Part shown: positions 20,601 to 58,253 of the stretch, in pieces
Layout of the letters: every line of letters begins with the position of its first letter
Numbering within the stretch: the stretch's first letter is position 1
Origin: Spizellomyces punctatus DAOM BR117
Taxonomy: Eukaryota
Strand: one strand, 5' to 3'
DNA: 64,000 bases
Assembly (NCBI GenBank): GCA_000182565.2
Contig: KQ257459.1
The notes under the pieces: model-generated
What the model was told of the DNA's origin: nothing
What the model saw: only the letters and a program-made list of their open reading frames with translations
The model's database searches: none
Position numbers and translations under genes: made by a program

Positions 20601-21280
20601 TTTATTAAGTGGGTGCTTCTGACTCACATGGACTAATGACGGACTTTGTCATGTATGGCAGATGGGTAATGCTTGGTTTGCTTGTAATGCAAGCAGCGAA
20701 GAAGCTGACCGTCTTTGTCCCACCATGTTTATAGATATTGTCATGCCAGTGATGGATGGTATCCAAGCCACACGAGAGATTCGCAAATTGGAAAAATCAA
20801 GAGCGCAATCCGAGCCTGGTCGCTTGTTGCCATCAACACCGGATGCTGTTATAGTTGCCCTCACAGCATCCTCGTTACCAGCCGATCGAGATGCTGCCCT
20901 AGCAGCTGGTTGTAATGATTATTTGATTAAGCCAGTGAGTTTGGGTAAGCGTTTGGATGTCATTCTGTCCACCGCCATGTCAAATCTATCCGCTCATCTG
21001 CGTGTGCTTGTTTTCAGTTTGGTTGGAACGTAAAATTCTCGAATGGGGTGCGATGCAAGCCCTCATTGACTTTGAGAATGTACTCGGACAGGATGATGAG
21101 CCGCCAACGACTACTCAAAAGCCGAGAGGGAAAGACCGCCTACCAGCATTTCCCAAACCTGCCATTGCAGGGAGTGCCCCTGCAGTTCTGTCCGTGGGTT
21201 CCCAAGCCGTTGATCATCCTGAGGCAAGTTACATTTTGGGTGGCCAGCAGGTTCGGTCCCCAGCAGATGAGAGGCAGTGA
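17629..21280 (+). CDS. SSK1: Ssk1/Mcs4-type response regulator with degenerate kinase-like region and N-terminal hydrophobic segments
   Basis: VGDALASLADSKGLEL, GDEDYIRQIL; receiver domain IKVLIAEDNPINQ...IVLMDIVMPVMDG...VIVALTASS...GCNDYLIKP; Ssk1 hallmark WLERKILEWGAMQALIDF. The 5' start is less certain. Confidence 0.88.
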
Positions 21281-22022
21281 GCTGTATGCGTTCAAACATT
21301 CCTTGGAACTGTTCATTGTACCGGCTTGAAGCAGTCATAGCATAGGAGAGGGTTGAATGAAAGTCAGAAAATTCATGTATTTATATTTTGTGGGTCATTT
21401 TTTATTTATGTAGTACTCAAATTGTGTGCCACTATCAGCCAAACCCACCATTGAAACTGCTTAGAGCAATTGCACAAAGCTGGTGGAGTTGAAGGAGGTA
21501 GAGCATGTCAATACATTACTGCTCACTTATGGAGTGATGCCCAACTTGTATGTTTTCAATCAGTACTGTTTGCAAAGGAAGCCTGGTTAAAAGGTCAGTA
21601 ATATTTACCAAATATAAGTGATTACCAGCACATTCTATCTGAGGAAGGTCCTTACTTATAATATAGATAATAAATAAAGTATATATTAGGTATATTAATA
21701 AGGTCAACTTAATGGCACAATAACCAAGTATAGTTACTAAATAAGAATATATATATATTACTAAGTAATTTACCCCTACTTTGGAGAAAGTTAGACAGAT
21801 AACAACTATGTTGTGCATGCTTTAAATAGGTAGCAATGCTTTGTTATCTTCATACTAGCATACAAGTGTAGATTGAGAATCAAGAAAAGTGCTCAGTTCT
21901 ATAGAAGATCTATAGATATCTCTTGCCTTTCAAATCTGATACCTGTGGCCAAGAACTAGTTTCTATGTACCAAGTTCAATAGTAAGAAGCCAGGTATCTA
22001 GGTGAGTAGTTCATGTGAACAA

Positions 22023-22534
22023 TGTTGAGATTCAGGCTTAAACCATGCTGTATGATCTATAAATCATGTGAGATCATGCTGGGATGTCATTAGACAGTTC
22101 ACATCTGATTTGGCTAAAGTTACAACATGGGGAATTGGACTTAGAGTAATCAGAATGATCACAGATGCATGTGGGAATGATTTAAAGGGGTAAATCATCA
22201 TGTAAGTGCTCTTAGAAGGTCTGGAAGGTTTGTCATGATCTAGATCTTCAGGTAACATTTGCCAAGGCATGGCTGAAGCTGCTGAGCATTGCTGAGCATG
22301 GCTGAGCATGTAAACAAGTGGGCTGAAGCATGTAAACAGTAAACAAAGGTGGAGGGAGGCTGGAGAATGTACTGGGTTATATAAAGGGGACTTTTGAACG
22401 TCTCTGGATTAATACAAGCATGTTATCCACAAGTTACTGCACCCAGAAGTCTTACTAGCAGCCACAGGCATTACTAGGCCTTTCAGAAGTGATTTCTACA
22501 TGGGAAATCAGTGTTCCAAGCACTAAGTTCAATA
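22023..22534 (+). mobile_element. Copia LTR, solo copy A
   Basis: TGTTGAGATT...AAGTTCAATA; near-identical to 32141-32674. Confidence 0.92.
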
Positions 22535-22828
22535 ATCTGTAGCTCTTGGTCTTGCTGTGGTACACTCTGCAGTTGCTGCTGAGTGCTCCACATCAAGTTT
22601 TCATCAAAGATGATGTCCCTTGACATGACAACTTGGTTCATTTCAGGTACCCACAGTCTGTAGGCCTTACTCTGAGTGCTGTAGCTGACCATGACTGCCT
22701 TCTTGGCCTTCTCATCAAGTTTTGACTGCTTTTCTTTTAGAATATGAGTGTAGGCCACACAGCCAAACACTCTGAGGTGCTGGAGATCTGGTTTACTGCC
22801 TGTAAACTCTTGAGATGGTGTTAATTGG
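22535..22828 (-). mobile_element. Inverted fragment of Copia integrase C-terminal region
   Basis: Reverse complement matches about 30010-30303 (FGCVAYTHI..KLDEKAKKAVMV.YSTQSKAYRLW). Confidence 0.9.
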
Positions 22829-23115
22829 TGTTGAGATTCAGGCCTAAACCACGCTGTATGATCTATAAATCATGTGAGATCATGCTGGGATGTCATTAGA
22901 CAGTTCACATCTGATTTGGCTAAGTTACAACGTGGGGAATTGGACTTCGAATAATCAGAATGATCACAGATGCGTGTGGGAATGATTTAAAGGGGTAAAT
23001 CATCATGTAAGCACTCTTAGAAGGTCTGGAAGGTTTGTGGTGATCTAGATCTTCAGGTAATGTTTGCCAAGGCATGGCTGAAGCTGCTGAGCACTGCTGA
23101 GCATGGCTGAGCATG
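22829..23115 (+). mobile_element. Copia LTR copy B, truncated by Gypsy LTR (probable 5' LTR)
   Basis: Begins TGTTGAGATT; interrupted at GAGCATG|TGTAACAGG; shares diagnostic variants (GAATAATC, TGGTGATC) with the 3' LTR at 32141. Confidence 0.88.
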
Positions 23116-23757
23116 TGTAACAGGCTAGCAGGGACAAGAAGACAACAGAAAACTAGGGAAGACTTGGTTACTACTTCTTATTTTCCCTTTGAGGGGCCTC
23201 AGAGAGGTTGTAACAGGCTAGCAGGGACAAGAAGACAACAGAAAACTAGGGAAGACTTGGTTACTACTTGTTATTCTCCTTTGAGGGGCCTCAGAGAGGT
23301 CCTCTTTTTATAGACAAAGGGGCTGACAAATGCTATATCCTAACTACCCAATCAGATCTCACCCACATCATCCTAAACTATTTGTCAGCCTATTGCACCA
23401 TTTGCAACCAATCAGAACTCATACATGTCATCCTAAACTATTTGTCAGCCTATTGCACCATTTGCAACCAATCAGATCTTATACATGTCATCCTAAACTA
23501 TTTGTCAGCCTATTGCACCATTTATAGCCAATCACAAGTGAGACAAGTCATCCTAAATACACTGTGCCACTTGATTGAAAGGGGCAGATGCCAGTGTGTC
23601 AGGATACTCATCTAATTTAGCCAGAAATGGCTAAATCTGCTTATTTATCTAATTCTGGTCAAATGAATGCTGACACCATCAGCAAAGTCATGTGACCACT
23701 AGTTTGGAACCACATCTAACAGTATAACCCTAGCACTGACAGAAGAATTCTGTCACA
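23116..23757 (-). repeat. Gypsy 3' LTR (642 bp)
   Basis: Direct repeat of 28634-29214; contains a 93-bp terminal duplication and three 60-bp CCAAT units plus a partial one. Confidence 0.93.
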
Positions 23758-23773
23758 CTCCCCCACTTTAAGA

Positions 23774-26700
23774 TTAAGCTCCCTTCTGGGCTAGGAACTC
23801 CTTCAAGATTTCTCTGCTATGGGGTAGGAGGCTTTCTTCTGGTTCCCAGGTGTTCTGAGAGGAGGGATAGCCTTTCCACTTGATGAGGTAGAGATTCTTC
23901 TTCCTTCTGATCTTGTGGTCCAGAATCTTCTCAACTTCCCAAAACTCTTCTCCTTGCTGGATAATGGGCTCAGGCTCAGGTGGTACTGGTCTGGTAGGGA
24001 AGTCCTCTGTGGGGTCCAGGTAAGGCTTGAGGAGTCTCACATGGAACACTGGATGAATCTTCATGGTGCTGGGGAGCTCCAGGGTGTAATTCTGAAATTC
24101 ATCCTTGGCCTTGATTCTGTAAGGTCCAAGCCAGGGGTGAAGAAGTTTCTGGGCTGGCCTCTGGGCTTCTTCTTCTGGGGTGATACCTTCTCTAGATAGC
24201 CAAACTTTGGAGCCTAGGGGGTAGCTTGGGGCCTTGCTGAGAGACTTGTTGGCTTGCTGAACTTGTCTTTCTTGGGCCAGGACCATGTTATCCTTGGCTA
24301 CTTGAAGCAGTTGCTGAATATACTGGTGGAAGTCTGTTGCTTCAGGATCATTGCTTTCTCCTGGTGGTGTTGCTGGGGTCCTGGGATGCTGGCCATTCTC
24401 CAAGTAGAATGGGGTAAAGCCTGTGGTTTCTGAGACACTGTTGTTGTAGGCAAACTTAGCAAAGGGGAGAAGATCTTCCCAATTCTTCATGTTGTACTCC
24501 AGGAAAGCTCTGAGGTAGATCTTCAAAGTCTTGATGGTTCTCTCTGCCTGTCCATTGGTCTGCTGGTGTCTGGCAGTGGCTAGGAGGGTGTTGCAGCCTA
24601 AGAGTTGCATCAAGTTGGACCAGAATGAACTGGTGAACTTGGTGTCTCTGTCTGATACAATCACTTCTGGGAGGCCATGGTGCTTGAAGATGTGCTTCAA
24701 GAAGAGCAGGGCCAGGTCCTTGGCTGAGGCTCTGGTGGTGGTGGGGATGAAGTGGCCTCTCTTTGACAATCTGTCAACAATGACAAAGATGGCATTGTGA
24801 TCAGAGGAAGTCATAGGTAGGTCAGGGATCAGGTCAATGGAGATCTGGCTCCATCTGGTCTTAGGTACTGGGAGGGGCTGCAGCAAGCCTGCTGGTGGTT
24901 GCTGACTAGGTTTGCTTCTCTGGCAGGAATCACAAGACTTGACATACTTCTTAATGTCCTTGTACATCCTTGGCCAGTAGTAATGCCTTGCTAGGGCATC
25001 ATGGGTCTTAGTGATGCCAAAGTGTCCAGCATATTGAGTGTCATGGGTTTCTTGGAGTAGGCTCAACCTTAGGTCTGGGTCACTAGGAACAAAGATCCTG
25101 TCCTGGAAATAGAGTAACCCATCTTGATGGCTGAGGTACTTGAGCCTTTGTTGCTTGTCTTCTGGTCTCCTGGGGTCATCCAAAGCTTGGAGGAGCTCTT
25201 GAAGTTCTGGGTCTTCTGTGGTACTGGTCTTCAATCTCTCTTGAAGGGTGCTGGTGGTGTGGGTCACAGCATTCAACTCTGCTGTCACCAAGGCCTTGCA
25301 CTTGATGCATCTTGGGGCCAGGTCTGGTCTTCTAGACAGGATGTCTGCCACTGTGTGGAGTCTTCCTGGGCCATAGCCAATCTCAAAGTCAAAAGATTGG
25401 AAATTCATGACCCATCTGGCTTGTCTTCTGGTCAAGAAGGGCTGGTTCTGTAGCCACTTGAGGGACTGGTGGTCTGAGATGACTTTGAAGGGGGTTCCTT
25501 CCAGGTAGGGCCTCCAAACTCTGAGGGCATCATGGATGGCTAACAGCTCTTGTTCTCTGGTGTCATATCTGGTCTCTGCTGGGGCCATCTTCCTGGAGTG
25601 GTAGGCAACTGGTCTCATGCCTTTCCCATCATCCTGTCCAAGCCATGCTCCAACTGCATAGCCTGAGGCATCAGGGAAGACAGTGGTAGGCAAGGCTGGG
25701 TCAAAGGGTCTGAGTACAGGGGCTTTGGTAACCATATCCTTCAGCTGCTGAAAAGCTTTCTCCTGAGGTTCAGACCAGGTCCAGGGCTTGTCATTTCTCA
25801 ACAGGTCTGTCAATGGTGCAGCTTGCTCTGCCAGGTCCTTCAGAAAGCTATGGAAGTAGTTCACCAGGCCCATGAACTGTCTGACTTCAGTGACACTCTG
25901 AGGGGTGGGCCATTCTTGAACAGTCTGCACTTTCTTGGGGTCAAGCTTGACTCCTTCATGTGAGACTACATGGCCAAGAAACTCTACTTCTTGCTTGAGG
26001 AACTGGCACTTGCTGGGGTTGGCATACAGCTTGTTCTGCCTGAAGGCTTGCAGAACCTGCTTGAGGTGGTCCAGGTGATCTTCTGGGGTCTTGGAGTAGA
26101 TGAGGATGTCATCTAGGTAGACAATAACAAAGATGTCCAAGAAGGGTCTAAGGACATCATTCATCAAAGTCATGAAAGTGGCTGGGGCATTGGTCATTCC
26201 AAAGGACATGACCAGGAACTCAAAGTGACCATATCTGGTTCTGAAGGCTGTCTTGGGGATGTCTTCTGGGTGGACTCTGATCTGGTAATAGCCTGACTTC
26301 AGATCTAGCTTGGTAAACACCTGGGCTCCATTCAGCCTATCCATCAGCTCATCAATCCTAGGGAGGGGATATCTGTTCTTGATGGTGATTTTATTCAGAG
26401 CCCTGTAGTCCACACACATCCTCAAAGAACCTTCTTTCTTCTTAACAAAGAGGATAGGTGCTCCAAATGGGCTCTTGGAGGGTCTGATGTGGCCTGCCTC
26501 CAGAAGCTCTGAAAGCTGCTTCCTCAGTTCTTCTAACTCCAAAGAAGAGAGGTGGTAGGTTGGTCTCCAGGGGGTCTGGTTGGGGTCACTGAGTTCAATT
26601 CTGTGATCTACTGATCTCTCAGGGGGAAGTCCTGGGGGAAGCTCTTCAGCAAAGACATCTTGATAGTTTTCAAGAAGCTTGGTGACTTTGGAATCCATGG

Positions 26701-27239
26701 TGTCTGGAGGGGTGCTGGTATCTTGAGGGTTCTTGAGATACACAGCAAAAGCTGTTGCTGTCCTCTTCTTCAGTGTTCTGGCCAACATCTTTGCTGATAC
26801 CATGGTGATAAGATTGGACTTCTGGGATTTGTTGGAAGAGCTGGCCTGCTTAACAAACCATCTGACTCTGGGGTGCTGGGAGGTGGTGAAGGTCACAGTG
26901 TTCTTGTTGTAGTTGATACTGGGATTCCTCCAGGCAAACCAAGGTATACCCAGGATCAAGTCAAACTTGATTGGGGCTACTATAAAGTCTGACTGTTCTG
27001 TGTAGGTTCCTACTGAGTACTGAAGACCTTTGACAAAGCCTATTTCTTGGTGCTTTCTGTCATCAGCCATAGAGATTTCTGCTCCAGGGAGAGAATGAGT
27101 CACCAGTTGTGCCTTCTTGACAAAGGACTGTGACACATAGAGTTGGTTTGCCCCATTATCCAGGAGAATGGTTACTGGGATTCCTTGGATTCTACCTTGC
27201 ACAGTCAGCAAGTGACTCTGGGGAATCCTTGGCCCTTTG
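23774..27239 (-). CDS. pol: Gypsy pol: aspartic protease, reverse transcriptase, RNase H, integrase, chromodomain
   Basis: [60 protein letters not shown]...[19 protein letters not shown]. No stops across the ORF. Confidence 0.96.
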
Positions 27240-27752
27240 TATTGAAACTTAGCGCTTGGAACACTGATTTCCCGTGTAGAAATCACTTCTGAAAGGCCTA
27301 GTAATGCCTGTGGCCGCTAGTAAGACTTCTAGGTGCAGTAACTTGTGGGATAACACGCTTGTATTAATCCAGAGACATGCAAAAGTCCCCTTTATATAAC
27401 CCAGTACATTCTCCAGCCTCCCTCCGCCTTTGTTTACTGTTTACATGCTTCAGCCCACTTGTTTACATGCTCAGCCATGCTCAGCAGTGCTCAGCAGCTT
27501 CAGCCATGCCTTGGCAAACATTACCTGAAGATCTAGATCATCACAAACCTTCCAGACCTTCTAGGAGCGCTTACATGATGATTTACCCCTTTAAATCATT
27601 CACACACGCGTCTGTGATCATTCTGATTACTCTAAGTCCAATTCCCCACGTTGTAACTTAGCCAGATCAGATGTGAACTGTCTAATGACATCCCAGCATG
27701 ATCTCACATGATTTATAGATCATACAGCGTGGTTTAAGCCTGAATCTCAACA
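27240..27752 (-). mobile_element. Copia solo LTR copy C, inverted, inside Gypsy gag
   Basis: Reverse complement of the Copia LTR (TATTGAA...TCTCAACA); flanks CTTTG and CTTGA do not match. Confidence 0.92.
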
Positions 27753-28091
27753 CTTGACATGGCTTTGCCACCAGACTTCAGCATGGAGTTCCAAGTAGGT
27801 GGTGGCTACTAACAGTTGGCCTTCTGGTGATAGATCTGCAGCTGCCTGGAAGTACTCTTCAAGTCTGAGGAGGTATGTCCTAATCTCTTGGACATTCCTG
27901 TTGCCTTTGTAGGGCTTCAACTTGCTTTGGAGGACTTTTACCAGGGATTTATCTACTCTGGGTTGGTACTGAGCAGTGGCTGGTGTGGTGGAGTTCAGCT
28001 GCTGGAGCTTTGCTTGATAAAGCTCCTGCCTGACCTGGTCTATGTCAAGCTCAGCAATGGTGTTGAAGAGAATCTCTTCCTGGCTGGTCAT
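27753..28091 (-). pseudogene. gag: Gypsy gag N-terminal fragment
   Basis: MTSQEE...LKPYKGNR...YLLRLEEYF...ATTYLELHAEVWWQ capsid-like motif, cut by the Copia LTR. Confidence 0.85.
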
Positions 28092-28145
28092 GGTGGTAAT
28101 GGGGTGGAGTCTTGGGTAGTTACAATATTACTTGTAACAACAACA

Positions 28146-28283
28146 ATAGGGTGGGTCACAGGCCCAAGAGATGCAATGTTACTTGCAGTCAAGATAGGGT
28201 GGGTCACAGGCCCAAGAGATGCAATGTTACTTGCAGTCAAAATAGGGTGGGTCACAGGCCCAAAATATGCAATATTACTTGCA
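28146..28283. repeat. 48-bp tandem repeat (about 3 copies) in the Gypsy 5' leader
   Basis: ATAGGGTGGGTCACAGGCCCAAGAGATGCAATGTTACTTGCAGTCAAG repeated. Confidence 0.9.
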
Positions 28284-28633
28284 AGTACAACTGGTGGGGA
28301 GGATACAGGGGGACTCTACAGCTTCTTCACAATCCCACAATAGAAAAACTCTATCTGTTTTCTCAGAGCTTCTGATGCTAACCAAGTGGTGTGTCTGGTG
28401 GTAGTTCTGGAGGTTGTGCTGGGGGTAGGTTTGTGGTATGGGGTGGTGTGAGCTGGTCTGTAGGAGTCCTTGAGGGGGGTTCTGGGCATAAGTTGGGTCT
28501 GAGATAAGAGGCAGGGGTCTTCTGATATTACTCAGAAGGTCTAGGGCAGGTTCTGGGGGTCTGGGGATCTTAGCTTCTGATCTCTCACAGAAGGTCTAAG
28601 AGTCTGGGGTTGTTGTCTAAGGTGGTGCTACCA

Positions 28634-29214
28634 TGTAACAGGCTAGCAGGGACAAGAAGACAACAGAAAACTAGGGAAGACTTGGTTACTACTTCTTATT
28701 TTCCCTTTGAGGGGCCTCAGAGAGGTTGTAACAGGCTAGCAGGGACAAGAAGACAACAGAAAACTAGGGAAGACTTGGTTACTACTTGTTATTTTTCTGA
28801 GGGGCCTCAGAGAGGTCCTCTTTTTATAGACAAAGGGGCTGACAAATGCTATATCCTAACTACCCAATCAGATCTCACCCACATCATCCTAAACTATTTG
28901 TCAGCCTATTGCACCATTTGCAACCAATCCGATCTTGTACATGTCATCCTAAACTATTTGTCAGCCTATTGCACCATTTATAGCCAATCACAAGTGAGAC
29001 AAGTCATCCTAAATACACTGTGCCACTTGATTGAAAGGAGCAGATGCCAGTGTGTCAGGATACTCATCTAATTTAGCCAGAAATGGCTAAATCTGCTTAT
29101 TTATCTAATTCTGGTCAAATGAATGCTGACACCATCAGCAAAGTCATGTGACCACTAGTTTGGAACCACATCTAACTAGTATAACCATAGCACTGACAGA
29201 AGAATTCTGTCACA
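28634..29214 (-). repeat. Gypsy 5' LTR (581 bp)
   Basis: As the 3' LTR but one 60-bp unit fewer, plus small indels and substitutions. Confidence 0.93.
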
Positions 29215-32159
29215 AAGAGCCACTGAAAACGGTGCCAAAGTTGAGTTTGGCAGCAAGGGATGCTGTATCAAGACTTCAGATGGTCAGGAGGCAATCCAGG
29301 GAACTCTAGGCGGCGGTCTATACATGTTTCATGCAAGAGAACATGCAAACATAGCCTCTGGAATGAGTTTGGACCTCTGGCATCGCAGGTTAGGACACCT
29401 GAACGTCAACAGCATCAAAATCTTGGCTAGGAACCAGCGGGGAAGCGGTCTGGAGGTCAAGAATCACACAGAAATATCACCATGTGAAGCCTGTGCCATT
29501 GGAAAGATCACCAGGCGTCCCTTTCCAAAGGGAGAAGCAGCTAGAGCGGCTCTACTGCTGGGGGTGGTTCACAGTGATGTGTGTGGGCCCATGAAGACAC
29601 CAAGTCATGGTGGGGCAAAGTACTTTGTCACATTCATTGATGACAAGTCAAGGATGACAGCAGTTTATCTTCTGAAGGAGAAGAGTGAGGTTCTCAGCAA
29701 ATTCAAGGAGTTTGAGGCCTGGGCAACCAACTTCATGGGGCAGAAGATCAAAACTCTCAGATCAGACAATGGGGGAGAGTATGTGGGCAAAGAATTCAAG
29801 AAATTCTGCAAGCAGAAGGGAATTCAGCAGCAATTCAGCACCCCCTACACACCAGAGCAGAATGGTGTTGCTGAGAGGATGAACAGGATGCTGGTGGAAA
29901 TGGGAAGGTGCATGCTGCACCACAGTGGACTCAGCTACAAGTTCTGGGGCGAGGCAATCATGACAGTGGTCTATCTCAGGAACAGGAGCCCCACTGCAGC
30001 ACTCAGCAACCAATCAACACCATTTCAAGAGTTTACAGGCAGTAAACCAGATCTCCAGCACCTCAGAGTGTTTGGCTGCATCACCTACACTCATATTCCA
30101 AAGGAAAAGCGGTCAAAACTTGATGAGAAGGCCAAGAAGGCAGTCATGGTCGGCTACAGCACTCAGAGTAAGGCCTACAGACTGTGGGTACCTGAAATGA
30201 ACCAAGTTGTCATGTCAAGGGACGTCATCTTTGATGAAAACTTGATGTGGAGCACTCAGCAGCGACTGCAGAGTGTACCACAGCAAGACCAAGAGCTACA
30301 GATGCCTCTGGGAGGGGAGCCTTTGTTCTTGGACGACCAAGAAGGGCTAGGGACGGTTCAAGAGACTCAGGGACCATCTAGCATCACTCCAGACAACTCT
30401 TCAGCATCAGAAGATGATGGGGACGACTTCCAAGATGCTGAGGAAGTGCCAGAACTCAGCAGGAAGAGTGCCAGATTTCACAAACCACTGGGAGAGTGGT
30501 GGATTGCAAAGCCAACTCAGTCAAACCTGGCTTTTGCCTTCACCATTGGGGAAGTTCCACAGGAAGAACCCAGCACTCTGGCTGAAGCTAGGACCAGACA
30601 TGATGCCAAACAGTGGGAGGTGGCTGTCAAAGCAGAATATGACTCTCTGATGGAGAATCAGACATGGGACTTAGTCAAACTACCACCAGGAAGATCCACA
30701 GTTGGCTGCAAGTGGGGTTTTCAAGCTGAAACTCAAGTCAGATGGCTCTGTAGAGTGCTACAAGGCCAGACTGGTAGCCAAAGGATACTCCCAAGTTGAA
30801 GGACTGGACTACAAAGAGACATTTGCCCCAGTAGTCAAGTTTGCAACCATCAGGACGGTCCTGACACTAGCTGCCATGAAGGACATGGAGATTCACCAAA
30901 TGGATGTCAAGACAGCATTCTTGAATGGGACCATTGAGGAGGACATCTACATGGACCAACCAGAAGGCTTCACCATGGCAAATGGACTTGTCTGCAAGCT
31001 AAAGAAGAGTTTGTATGGGTTAAAGCAAGCTCCAAGAGCCTGGAACAAAGTCATTGATGGGCAACTCAAAGAACTTGGCTTTGAAAGGTGTGAATCAGAC
31101 CACGGGCTGTACATCAACAAGAAGATGGGCATCCACCTTATCCTATATGTGGATGACCTTATTCTGGCATCAAAGGACGACCAGGAGTTGTTAAAACTCA
31201 AAGAAGAACTCAAGAAGCAGTTCAAGATGGCTGATATGGGCCAGTTAGAGCATTTTCTCGGCATTCAAGTGGTCAGGGACAGAGCCAACAGGTCAATCTG
31301 GCTCTCCCAACAGCGGTACCTCGGTCAAACATTGAAGAAATTCAATATGAGTAACAGCAAACCAGTTGCCACACCACTAGAGAATGGCCAGAAGCTCACC
31401 AAGGCCATGTCACCACAAACTGAGGCAGAACAGCAAGAAATGAACGGGGTTCCTTTCAGAAGTGCTGTTGGAAGTCTCATTTATGCAATGCTGGGCACCA
31501 GACCAGACATAGCAGCGGCAGTTGGATCAGTCAGCCAGTACCTTTCCAACCCCGGACATCAGCACTGGATAGCAGTCAAACGGATCATGCGGTACCTGAA
31601 TGGCACCACAGACCTAGGACTTCAACTGGGTGGCATTCAGAGCAAGTGGGAGCTATCTGCATACTCTGATGCAGATTGGGGCGGTGATTTGGACTTCAGG
31701 AAGTCTACCACTGGCTTCTTAGTCAAGATTGGCAGCAGCACAGTCAGCTGGCAAAGCAAGAGGCAACCTACAGTCGCTCTATCATCAACAGAGTCAGAGT
31801 ACATGGCTCTTTGTCAAGCTACCAAGGAAGTTATCTGGTTCAGAACACTCCTAGGCGAGCTAGGACATCAGCAAAGCGGTCCTACAACATTGTATGGTGA
31901 CGATCAGGGCGCCATAGCACTTGCCAACAACCCAACACATCATGCAAGGACCAAACATATTGATGTGCGGCACCACTTCATCAGACAAGCAGTAGAAGAC
32001 AAGAAAATCAGCCTCAAGTACTGTCAGACAGAAGAAATGATGGCTGACATTCTCACCAAGGCTCTACCCAAGACAAAGCACCTTAAACTTTGTGGTAAAA
32101 TGGGTCTCTGTCAGAAATCAGATGATTCACTGAGTGGGAGTGTTGAGATTCAGGCTTAA
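29215..32159 (+). pseudogene. pol: Ty1/Copia pol (GAG-pre-integrase, integrase, RT, RNase H), 5'-truncated, one frameshift
   Basis: LWHRRLGH..CEAC, HSDVCGP, LRSDNGGEY, QMDVKTAFLNG, LYVDD, YSDADWGG, ARTKHIDVRHHFIR. Extra G in the run at 30714-30717 breaks KWVFK. Confidence 0.95.
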
Positions 32160-32674
32160 ACCACGCTGTAGGATCTATAAATCATGTGAGATCATGCTGG
32201 GATGTCATTAGACAGTTCACATCTGATTTGGCTAAGTTACAACGTGGGGAATTGGACTTAGAATAATCAGAATGATCACAGACACGTGTGGGAATGATTT
32301 AAAGGGGTAAATCATCATGTAAACACTCTTAGAAGGTCTGGAAGGTTTGTGGTGATCTCGATCTTCAGGTAATGTTTGCCAAGGCATGGCTGAAGCTGCT
32401 GAGCACTGCTGAGCACGGCTGAGCATGTAAACGAGTGGGCTGAAGCATGTAAACAAGTGGGCTGAAGCATGTAAACAGTAAACAAAGGCAGAGGGAGGCT
32501 GGAGAATGTACTGGGTTATATAAAGGGGGCTTTTGAACATCTCTGGATTAATACAAGCATGTTATCCCACAAGTTACTGCACCCAGAAGTCTTACTAGCG
32601 GCCACAGGCATTACTAGGCCTTTCAGAAGTGATTTCTACATGGGAAATCAGTGTTCCAAGTGCTAAGTTCAATA
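32141..32674 (+). mobile_element. Copia 3' LTR copy D
   Basis: Preceded by PPT TGAGTGGGAG; TGTTGA...TCAATA; carries a private 22-bp duplication at about 32423-32466. Confidence 0.93.
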
Positions 32675-56489: not shown

Positions 56490-58253
56490 CTACGCTACCT
56501 TTGAACGAAGAGGACCCGTAAACCCTCCTGCACTGCGACCGACACCCAACCTGTGCTTCAGCTCATTCAATATCGCTTTCCGATCTTGCACTATCCCACC
56601 ACCCCCTGCAAGCACGTCGGAATTCTCAAGTGCACGTCTCTGGAGATAGGGAATCGTCACACCAATAGGTCCGTACGGTATGTACTTAAATACCTTGTAT
56701 CCTTTGCTCGCCAACGAGAAAGTTGTCCCATCTTGCATACCCATCAGCTGTGCAAACGCCACGGATCCTTCTCCTGCCGGAACATTGAACTGATTCATTT
56801 GCTGGCATGCGTGTTCCACCGAATTTTGGTTATGCGATGCGACAACAAAACTAAGCGGACGAATGTTCCCTTCCACTGTTATATTCGAGTCAGGGCTTTG
56901 AAACCCGGATATTTTGTTCACCAGGAAATCGATGGCCTTGTTGTAGGCAGCATGGGTAGCTTCGATGGTAGGTTGAATAGGATCTGGAATTCCTAGTTCC
57001 TCGGCACGCTCCCGTTCGGCATGCATATAGGCGCCACGCACTATTTTGACGCCAAACGAGTATCCGTTCCGCTCTGCCCTCTCCACATCTAGCACCAGCC
57101 GTTCGTATCCGTCCTTCAAATACAACTGGTAGGTATTGTACAAGACAGGACCGCGTCTTCCGGCCTCATTAGGACCATGGTGCGGTGGGTTGAATTTCTT
57201 GCACAGATTCAATCCAACATCATCAATAGCCGGCTGGAAATACGTTTGCTCCGCGTCTACTAGAATTCGGACGCGGAGGTCACGGGCGTGCTGTGCGACG
57301 ATATCAATATCGGGAATGACAAGGTCTGTAGTATCGAGATCGTCGGCGGATATGAGTTGATTATCGGGTGTGACTGGTTCAATGGGAGGACGGATGAGGG
57401 AGCGAGATGCAGATGAGTTGTAGAGTGAGAACGTATCCGTGACATCAAGCCAGTCGATGAAGCCGTCCTTATCGCGATCCGTAGCAGCGAACAGTGCACT
57501 TGCCGTGTCGCCTCTCAGATGAGGAAATGTAGCTGAAAGCTCCAAAAATTCTTCCAGACTCAGCCTACCGTCTCCGTTTCGGTCAGCTTTCCGGAAAGCC
57601 GCTTGCAGTAGCACAAGCGTATTGCTCCAGCGCTGGAGAATCAATGGGGGAACGAGCGCAGTGACTTTTAGCGCAATGAAGCTTCCTGGTGTCTTGCTGG
57701 CTATGTCAATACTCTCTTTAAACATCCCAGCAACTTTACGAGCTTGCTCTTGCGCAGCAGGTCCTGAAAGCGAAGCCGCATCCACATCCGCTTCAAGGGC
57801 CAGGTCAAGGATGCTGCCAATTTTTAGGCTCTTGAAGTTTTCCATGGTCGGAACAACCTCGGCAAGGTCTTCTCCACCTGTCGCAGAAAAACATATACGT
57901 GAGTCCACAGTTCAGAGAGGTCAGGCTCATCAAATATGCATACCACAAAAATGTCTAAAGAAAGTCTGCTTGATGACGGCATAAACCGGCCGAGTCAGTT
58001 TCATTTTTTCGGCCCACTCCAAAATCGTGGGAGATGCCTCCACTATCTTTGGCATTGCACATAGTTGAAAGACCAAGAGGGAGTTTAGCAGTTCTGCGGT
58101 AGAGCGGGTCTTGTAGGGCCGAACACTGTCTAGTGACGAATTGTGTGCTTGGGTTGCCAACGAGCGAGTTTGAATGAGGGAGCGAGCGAGGCTGAGAGAA
58201 CAAGAACCGTGCGGCGGTCGGATGCGAGTGAGTTGACGGAGTGGAAGGGACAT
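56490..58253 (-). CDS. PUT1: Mitochondrial proline dehydrogenase with EF-hand pair insert
   Basis: Presequence; TFFRHFCGGE; IALKVTAL; LVDAEQTYFQ; NTYQLYLK; KIVRGAY; VASHN; FAQLMGM; KYIPYG; YLQRRALEN. Confidence 0.95.

Follow-up and report, generated by a model that had tools for sequence, protein, structure and literature searches.

How can a transposon be emptied of CpG dinucleotides and still carry an open and conserved pol gene? Methylated transposons that have lost CpGs are commonly taken for corpses, silenced copies in decay, and the question is raised by a retrotransposon in a 64,000-nucleotide stretch of the Spizellomyces punctatus DAOM BR117 genome (contig KQ257459.1 of GenBank assembly GCA_000182565.2; the whole stretch is hereafter called the window). 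Positions 23116-29214 of the window are one minus-strand Ty3/gypsy chromovirus, a long terminal repeat (LTR) retrotransposon. We consider it probable that this is a dead copy of a young, multi-copy S. punctatus chromovirus family that is CpG-free family-wide, through methylation-linked mutability combined with purifying selection.

CpG content of the chromovirus

A script count found no CG from 22974 to 27252, an interval that spans the whole of pol and, at 4,280 bp, is the longest CpG gap in the window; the second-longest, of 1,202 bp, likewise lies inside the chromovirus. The range 23116-29214 holds 11 CpGs overall (observed/expected ratio, o/e, 0.033), of which ten (27253-27728) fall within a nested foreign LTR, here called LTR_B, and one lies at 28930. 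Without LTR_B, the element proper measures 5,586 bp and contains a single CpG against 312 expected from base composition (o/e 0.003), the LTRs and the leader being as CpG-empty as pol. If the element had the o/e of 0.2 of the copia element next to it, the chance of finding one CpG or fewer would still be P ~5e-26. The G+C content (GC) of the element is 0.47-0.49, without an AT shift. The CpG at 28930 goes back to a T>G transversion (element strand); since the sister units of both LTRs without exception read TCTG, it is a derived singleton.

The surroundings differ. The transposon nest in which the chromovirus lies (~21-34 kb) stands at 0.1-0.36 per kb, with neighbouring pieces at o/e 0.05-0.42, whereas the window flanks to the left and right of the nest have o/e values of 0.87 and 0.83, and seven host open reading frames (ORFs) hold 855 CpGs in 13,362 bp.

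These counts bear out most of what an earlier reading of the same DNA, the original prediction, had claimed: the script found 0 CG in each of pol, the gag fragment and the leader, which had been called free of it, the lone LTR CpG near 28930 is a new mutation as proposed, the "few hundred" CpGs thought to be expected amount to the 312 computed, and the flanks are as CpG-rich as stated. That prediction had allowed for CpGs that it might have missed; the element proper has only the one, but the range as a whole holds 11, ten of them in the nested LTR_B, which had gone unmentioned.

A pol ORF of ~1150 codons had also been announced, with reverse transcriptase (RT), RNase H, integrase and chromodomain motifs, and Pfam matches agree with it. 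The minus-strand ORF 23774-27286 is open over 1,170 codons, with no stops, and matches in order RVP_2/Asp_protease_2, RVT_1 (1.5e-42), RT_RNaseH (3.8e-32), Integrase_H2C2 (8.5e-25) and rve, followed at the C-terminus by a chromodomain (PF00385 Chromo, E = 3.1e-18, residues 1116-1165 of 1170). Since one ORF carries protease, RVT_1, RNase H, integrase, an SH3-like domain and a chromodomain, the element is assigned to the Ty3/gypsy chromoviruses.

As a separate observation on composition, ApG is the most over-represented dinucleotide in the element (o/e 1.60).

Loss in one copy or in the lineage

Other copies of the family were seen in run X1, where the single-copy flanks of the window were matched with 0 differences at a word depth of ~2-2.8 and contigs over the element interior stood at a depth of 18.6-23.5. 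These contigs differ from the present copy at 11 of 1,006 letters in 23494-24498 and at 13 of 2,298 in 24513-26810; the copy lies ~0.7% from the majority form. The differences examined are the 40 best supported (69 more lie outside that list), and among them none of the 23 in pol creates a CpG, nor does the one at 23730, between pol and the LTR. The pol differences comprise 14 transitions and 9 transversions, and no transition touches the CpG state, against 4.6 expected to do so (P ~0.004). Likeness to this copy is 90% or more for each of the 62 X1 pieces, and many of the differing letters reappear in runs X9 and X15. The lack of CpGs belongs to the replicating family lineage; it was gained under purifying selection on the protein and is shared by coding and non-coding parts alike. 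This much of the original interpretation is supported.

The selection is visible in pol itself. The 23 differences from the majority form divide into 13 synonymous and 10 non-synonymous changes, on 663 and 2,373 sites, respectively, a non-synonymous/synonymous ratio of ~0.2 (P = 3e-4 against neutrality). In the alignment with homologs 315 of 365 conserved columns are kept, and the YLDD motif, the HHCC finger, the D-D-E triad and the chromodomain are all present. Arginine (Arg) occupies 18 of the 24 columns in which at least 80% of 120 homologs have it, the exceptions being 2 His, 3 Lys and 1 Leu.

Codon usage follows the same avoidance. Every Arg had been predicted to be encoded by AGA or AGG, and pol indeed has 66 AGR and 0 CGN codons, at a normal Arg content; the gag fragment has 5 and 0, and the seven host ORFs 85 and 249. 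Deamination of 5-methylcytosine (5mC) converts CGN to stops, Cys, Trp, His or Gln, never to AGR. Among 280 NCN codons in pol not one is NCG, and codon boundaries at which NNC meets a following G number 0 against 103.7 expected. The third base of NNY codons is C in 152 and T in 47 cases in other contexts, and before G it is C in none and T in 64.

Fourfold degenerate sites add a further detail. Before G-starting codons (23774-27238, minus strand) we counted 75 A, 31 T, 19 G and 0 C, whereas in other contexts C dominates (207 of 361) and the non-C sites are 50 A, 70 T and 34 G (P = 2e-5 for the comparison with the sites before G). Plain C-to-T decay would enrich T at third positions before G. 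The observed excess is of A, from which a CpG can be made only by transversion, and it fits a long evolution in which new CpGs cost the lineage; such a cost could stem from decay that damages the next codon, or from silencing of CpG-bearing copies. A toy lineage model, which serves as an illustration, reproduces only the direction of the A shift.

An origin of the CpG-free state in this copy alone, by 5mC deamination or by a process resembling repeat-induced point mutation (RIP) after insertion, might be suspected from the position of the copy in a CpG-poor nest where decay is active. The LTR_B sequences of the nest provide an internal control. LTR_B is a 514-535-bp LTR found by self-comparison in four copies, in both orientations, among which 17 of 36 variable columns are CG versus TG/CA; its CpG bases have changed by transition ~33 times as often as other bases, an estimate drawn from 13 sites. 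Within 22574-22797, moreover, five of the seven listed differences are CpGs of the majority form that were lost at this locus. Deamination-type CpG decay is active here. The extent of decay varies, with one other LTR_B copy keeping 1 of the 12 ancestral CpGs and the nested LTR_B keeping 10 of 12; because the latter has kept so many, in-situ decay cannot have emptied the surrounding 5.6 kb. The open 1,170-codon ORF, with its exclusively AGR-encoded Arg at normal content, speaks against loss after insertion as well, as do the majority family contigs, which are CpG-free at all listed differences, the ~8 LTR substitutions, none of which is CG versus TG/CA, and a GC of 47-49%. We regard this explanation as refuted.

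Two corresponding labels were tried for the copy and dropped. As a product of in-situ 5mC-deamination decay it would sit badly with an open ORF, an all-AGR Arg usage and the absence of any CpG among the 23 pol differences and at 23730; as a RIP or RIP-like hypermutated repeat it would sit badly with its unshifted GC, its ~0.7% distance from the majority form, the 14 transitions against 9 transversions and the lack of stops.

Relatives bear on the ancestry of the loss. All 48 metagenomic relatives, at 32-62% amino-acid identity, carry CpGs (o/e 0.10-1.49), and therefore the purge is specific to this lineage and not ancestral; a 49th identity value, of 75%, comes from a match of 36 residues. Over long matches, L040 (62%) and L033 (61%) come closest, and their o/e values are 0.87 and 1.17. 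The best protein match is 64% identical and metagenomic, and the named matches are green algae and plants at 35-48%.

The remoteness of these matches would also suit a family that lost its CpGs in another host and then reached S. punctatus by recent horizontal transfer, as would the fact that none of the 62 pieces from X1 is under 90%, so that old diverged copies are not seen, and a C content at fourfold third positions of 43% against 22% in host ORFs. However, the two closest relatives with DNA are C-rich at third positions too (32-33%) with normal CpG, no CpG-free, donor-like relative was found among the 48 loci, and pieces of LTR_B accompany the family in X9 and X15, as expected of the same or a sister organism. 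We hold such a transfer to be improbable; the lineage-level purge would stand in any case, only in a different host.

Mutation pressure, counter-defence and known parallels

The original prediction had named a host without methylation as an objection to its reading. Methylation maps have been published, and the available text of that study (PMC12695648) describes 5mC in Spizellomyces as confined to transposons, so that on that account this objection would fall away; the CG to TG/CA excess among the LTR_B copies supports such methylation indirectly. In a host that methylates its transposons, the driver of the loss would be the high mutability of methylated CpG, while purifying selection would remove lineages whose CpGs decay to amino-acid changes; the purge is probably made sharper by selection against copies that bear CpGs and can be methylated. 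Over a long time, CGN Arg codons would give way to AGR, and C-ending codons before G to codons ending in A, T or G. The resulting element would present no CpG substrate to the host methyltransferase.

Chromodomains target elements to heterochromatin, and mutation pressure together with selection on the protein might suffice for a lineage-level purge if chromodomain-targeted copies reside in methylated heterochromatin, without any advantage to the element. CpG decay is active in the nest, and the copia element of the same nest is shifted in the same direction: its Arg codons are 40 AGR and 9 CGN, its o/e is 0.20, its boundary CpGs number 22 against 87.7 expected, and its integrase and RT ORFs are open over 540 and 495 codons. 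Lineage-level CpG avoidance seems to be general for this host's transposons, with the chromovirus as the extreme case. Absence of pol transcripts in an RNA run (X24, below) agrees with an element that gains nothing, and, as the toy model illustrates, A can come to prevail at fourfold sites before G since one CpG decay in two harms the codon that follows. The size of the effect is harder to account for in this way. At ~33-fold mutability, several to a dozen boundary CpGs should persist by a rough estimate, and 0 of ~198 are observed; sharing the o/e of 0.20 of copia in the same nest would give the P of ~5e-26 stated above; and protein damage alone gives T/A ratios of 0.5-0.8 in the toy model, against an observed shift of 0.29 when other contexts are taken as the reference. 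Pure mutation pressure needs a several-fold higher rate in master copies, which is conceivable if the chromodomain keeps the element in heterochromatin. We judge mutation and protein selection alone to be an unlikely explanation.

A further step would be to see in complete CpG avoidance a counter-defence against 5mC in an early-diverging fungus, by which the element became unmarkable and unmutable via CpG, its family hence staying young. We put this forward tentatively, as a possibility that we are inclined to doubt. The proposal of an escape from silencing in the original prediction found no support in this copy, which has a truncated gag, rearranged flanks and a pol depth in X24 of 0-0.06. 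Silencing by histone marks or RNA interference (RNAi) needs no CpG.

Several points weigh against a family-wide purge shaped by selection, and against an adaptive one in particular. (i) Retention of conserved Arg, at 18 of 24, is below the overall 315 of 365, and two of the six changes are to His, of the deamination type. (ii) Master copies residing in heterochromatin might have a CpG mutability high enough to produce this outcome without benefit to the element, and the 33-fold figure comes from only 13 sites in four LTR_B copies. (iii) The family-level claim rests on collapsed contigs of run X1, with partial agreement from X9 and X15, and on the 40 best-supported differences with the 69 others outside the list; word depth is not copy number, as contigs collapse copies, and a full-length copy with intact gag was not seen in the runs. 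(iv) In X24, the bins over pol have a depth of 0-0.06 and neighbouring host DNA 0.1-0.5, which bears on the adaptive part; X24 is a raw RNA run of which ~6% was read, and one run in one condition is weak evidence of silence.

The sole X24 pile on pol, at 25449-25545 (depth ~4.6), consists of reads of a diverged relative; these show 5 differences over 65 bases, two of them giving rise to CpGs, and there is a loose end at 25448. It represents an expressed diverged relative or a captured fragment elsewhere in the genome.

We rate the case as an extreme form of methylation-driven CpG depletion, which is itself known. Known cases of depletion are partial, with o/e of about 0.2-0.5. As far as the available texts go, CpG depletion of methylated transposons by 5mC deamination is described by Zhou et al. 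2020 (PMC7431005), and the same depletion in Agaricomycotina and Ustilaginomycotina by Horns et al. 2012 (PMC3318451). The S. punctatus locus resembles these cases in that the host methylates its transposons, that CG to TG/CA changes dominate among the LTR_B copies and that a CpG-poor nest lies in CpG-normal DNA. It departs from them, partial and found in decaying copies as they are, in that the loss in the chromovirus is near-total (o/e 0.003) and occurs in the replicating form, with pol open and conserved.

In Microbotryum, RIP-like TpCpG hypermutation goes together with a gypsy burst, according to the available part of Horns et al. 2017 (PMC5381629), and there too, as that part has it, a gypsy-like family holds out against a genome defence that turns C to T. 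Target shedding is only a suggestion there, and the copies are scarred by hypermutation; in the S. punctatus chromovirus, by contrast, the dinucleotide is gone element-wide, in all CpG contexts and not just TCG, with no scars and no AT shift.

In its architecture the element is an ordinary chromovirus, like MAGGY for example, with the order protease, RT, RNase H, integrase and chromodomain, TG...CA LTRs, a primer-binding site, a polypurine tract and an insertion within transposons. Absence of CpG, unlike these traits, is not a feature of the group, 48 of 48 relatives carrying CpGs. Vertebrate RNA viruses and retroviruses show a CpG suppression linked to the sensor ZAP that is strong but not total; a comparable CpG RNA sensor is not known from fungi. 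The chromovirus shares with ZAP-linked suppression a replicating retroelement with genome-wide CpG avoidance through synonymous choices, but the pressure differs, being an RNA sensor in vertebrates.

A full-text search of the available papers returned no description of a CpG-free retrotransposon family in S. punctatus or other chytrids, though the supplements of PMC12695648 might list the family, and no transposon family described as completing CpG loss with pol still open. In the chromovirus the same chemistry was apparently carried to completion in a lineage that keeps its enzymes, so that nothing is left for CpG methylation. If the CpG-free state lowers silencing, it would be a simple way, open to mobile elements in general, of outrunning a DNA-methylation defence, and would account for the need of methylating hosts for additional layers, histone marks and RNAi among them. 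If it brings no benefit, the element would provide a natural gauge of the strength of CpG mutability in the heterochromatin of chytrids. Were the counter-defence real, an arms race at the level of a dinucleotide would be found in a laboratory-transformable host. Medina et al. reportedly described a transformation method for S. punctatus in 2020.

Structure of the copy and of the transposon nest

The features of the chromovirus and its context are collected in the table. Both LTRs read TGTGACAG...TGTTACA and are ~8 substitutions and one 60-bp unit apart; the primer-binding site (TGG...) comes directly after the 5' LTR, and just ahead of the 3' LTR lies a purine-rich tract. Self-comparison of the window shows that gag ends after 113 codons at the edge of the nested LTR_B. 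The contigs of run X1 have loose ends at 27239 and 27753 and continue differently on either side of LTR_B; it follows that gag sequence absent here is present in other copies of the family. A target-site duplication was sought at the element flanks, which read CTCTT and CATGC, and was not found, so that, with gag incomplete as well, the copy does not qualify as an intact insertion. Because its gag is truncated, and the copy is rearranged besides, the chromovirus at 23116-29214 is a dead member of its family.

Features of the chromovirus and its surroundings (positions are those of the window)
Feature	Position	Strand	Remarks
3' LTR	23116-23757	(-)	642 bp, TG...CA, three 60-bp units; 0 CpG
Purine-rich (polypurine) tract between pol stop and 3' LTR	23758-23773	(-)	Read from sequence
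pol ORF: protease, RT (YLDD), RNase H, integrase (HHCC, D-D-E), SH3, chromodomain	23774-27239	(-)	0 CpG
Nested LTR_B, a foreign LTR belonging to the neighbouring copia element	27240-27752	(-)	513 bp, takes the place of the gag C-terminal part; 10 CpGs
gag fragment, N-terminal	27753-28091	(-)	113 codons; 0 CpG
Leader	28092-28633	(-)	Three 48-bp tandem units (28146-28289); primer-binding site adjoining the LTR (TGGTAGCACCACC...); 0 CpG
5' LTR	28634-29214	(-)	581 bp, two 60-bp units; one CpG at 28930
Full LTR_B	22023-22534	(+) context	1 CpG
Inverted copia fragment	22535-22829	inverted	295 bp, matching 30303-30009
LTR_B, first 289 bp only	22828-23116	(+) context	4 CpGs
copia internal region, integrase and RT ORFs	29215-32674 (right context)	(+)	ORFs 29180-32159
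LTR_B closing the copia element	32141-32674	(+)	7 CpGs
Host ORF, proline dehydrogenase	56490-57911	(-)	100% identical to the S. punctatus DAOM BR117 enzyme; other Spizellomycetales matches 62-71%

Two further uses of the copy were set aside. Divergence between the LTRs was not taken as an insertion date, since the flanks mismatch and the two LTRs may stem from a recombinant. The protease triplet D-N-G (27165-27167, pol residues 27-29) was considered as an inactivating change and rejected, its middle column being variable among the 120 homologs (S 69, C 17, G 9, K 4, gaps 14), most of which have D-S-G.

The tandem repeats of the LTRs lie at 23116-23557 and 28634-29013, with 60-bp units, three in the 3' LTR and two in the 5' LTR. 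A 93-bp duplication is present at the LTR end of the chromovirus.

In the nest as a whole, one copia family and the chromovirus are mixed and rearranged, and the 5' half of the copia element is gone where the chromovirus starts. The layout suggests LTR-LTR recombination or inversion rather than simple nesting.

At the edge of the nest, the CpG-poor stretch 20932-21575 is an expressed unit, covered by X24 reads of one strand at a depth of 19-45. The ORFs upstream of it, including the response-regulator-like ORF 20623-21033, have an X24 depth of 0.1-0.5.

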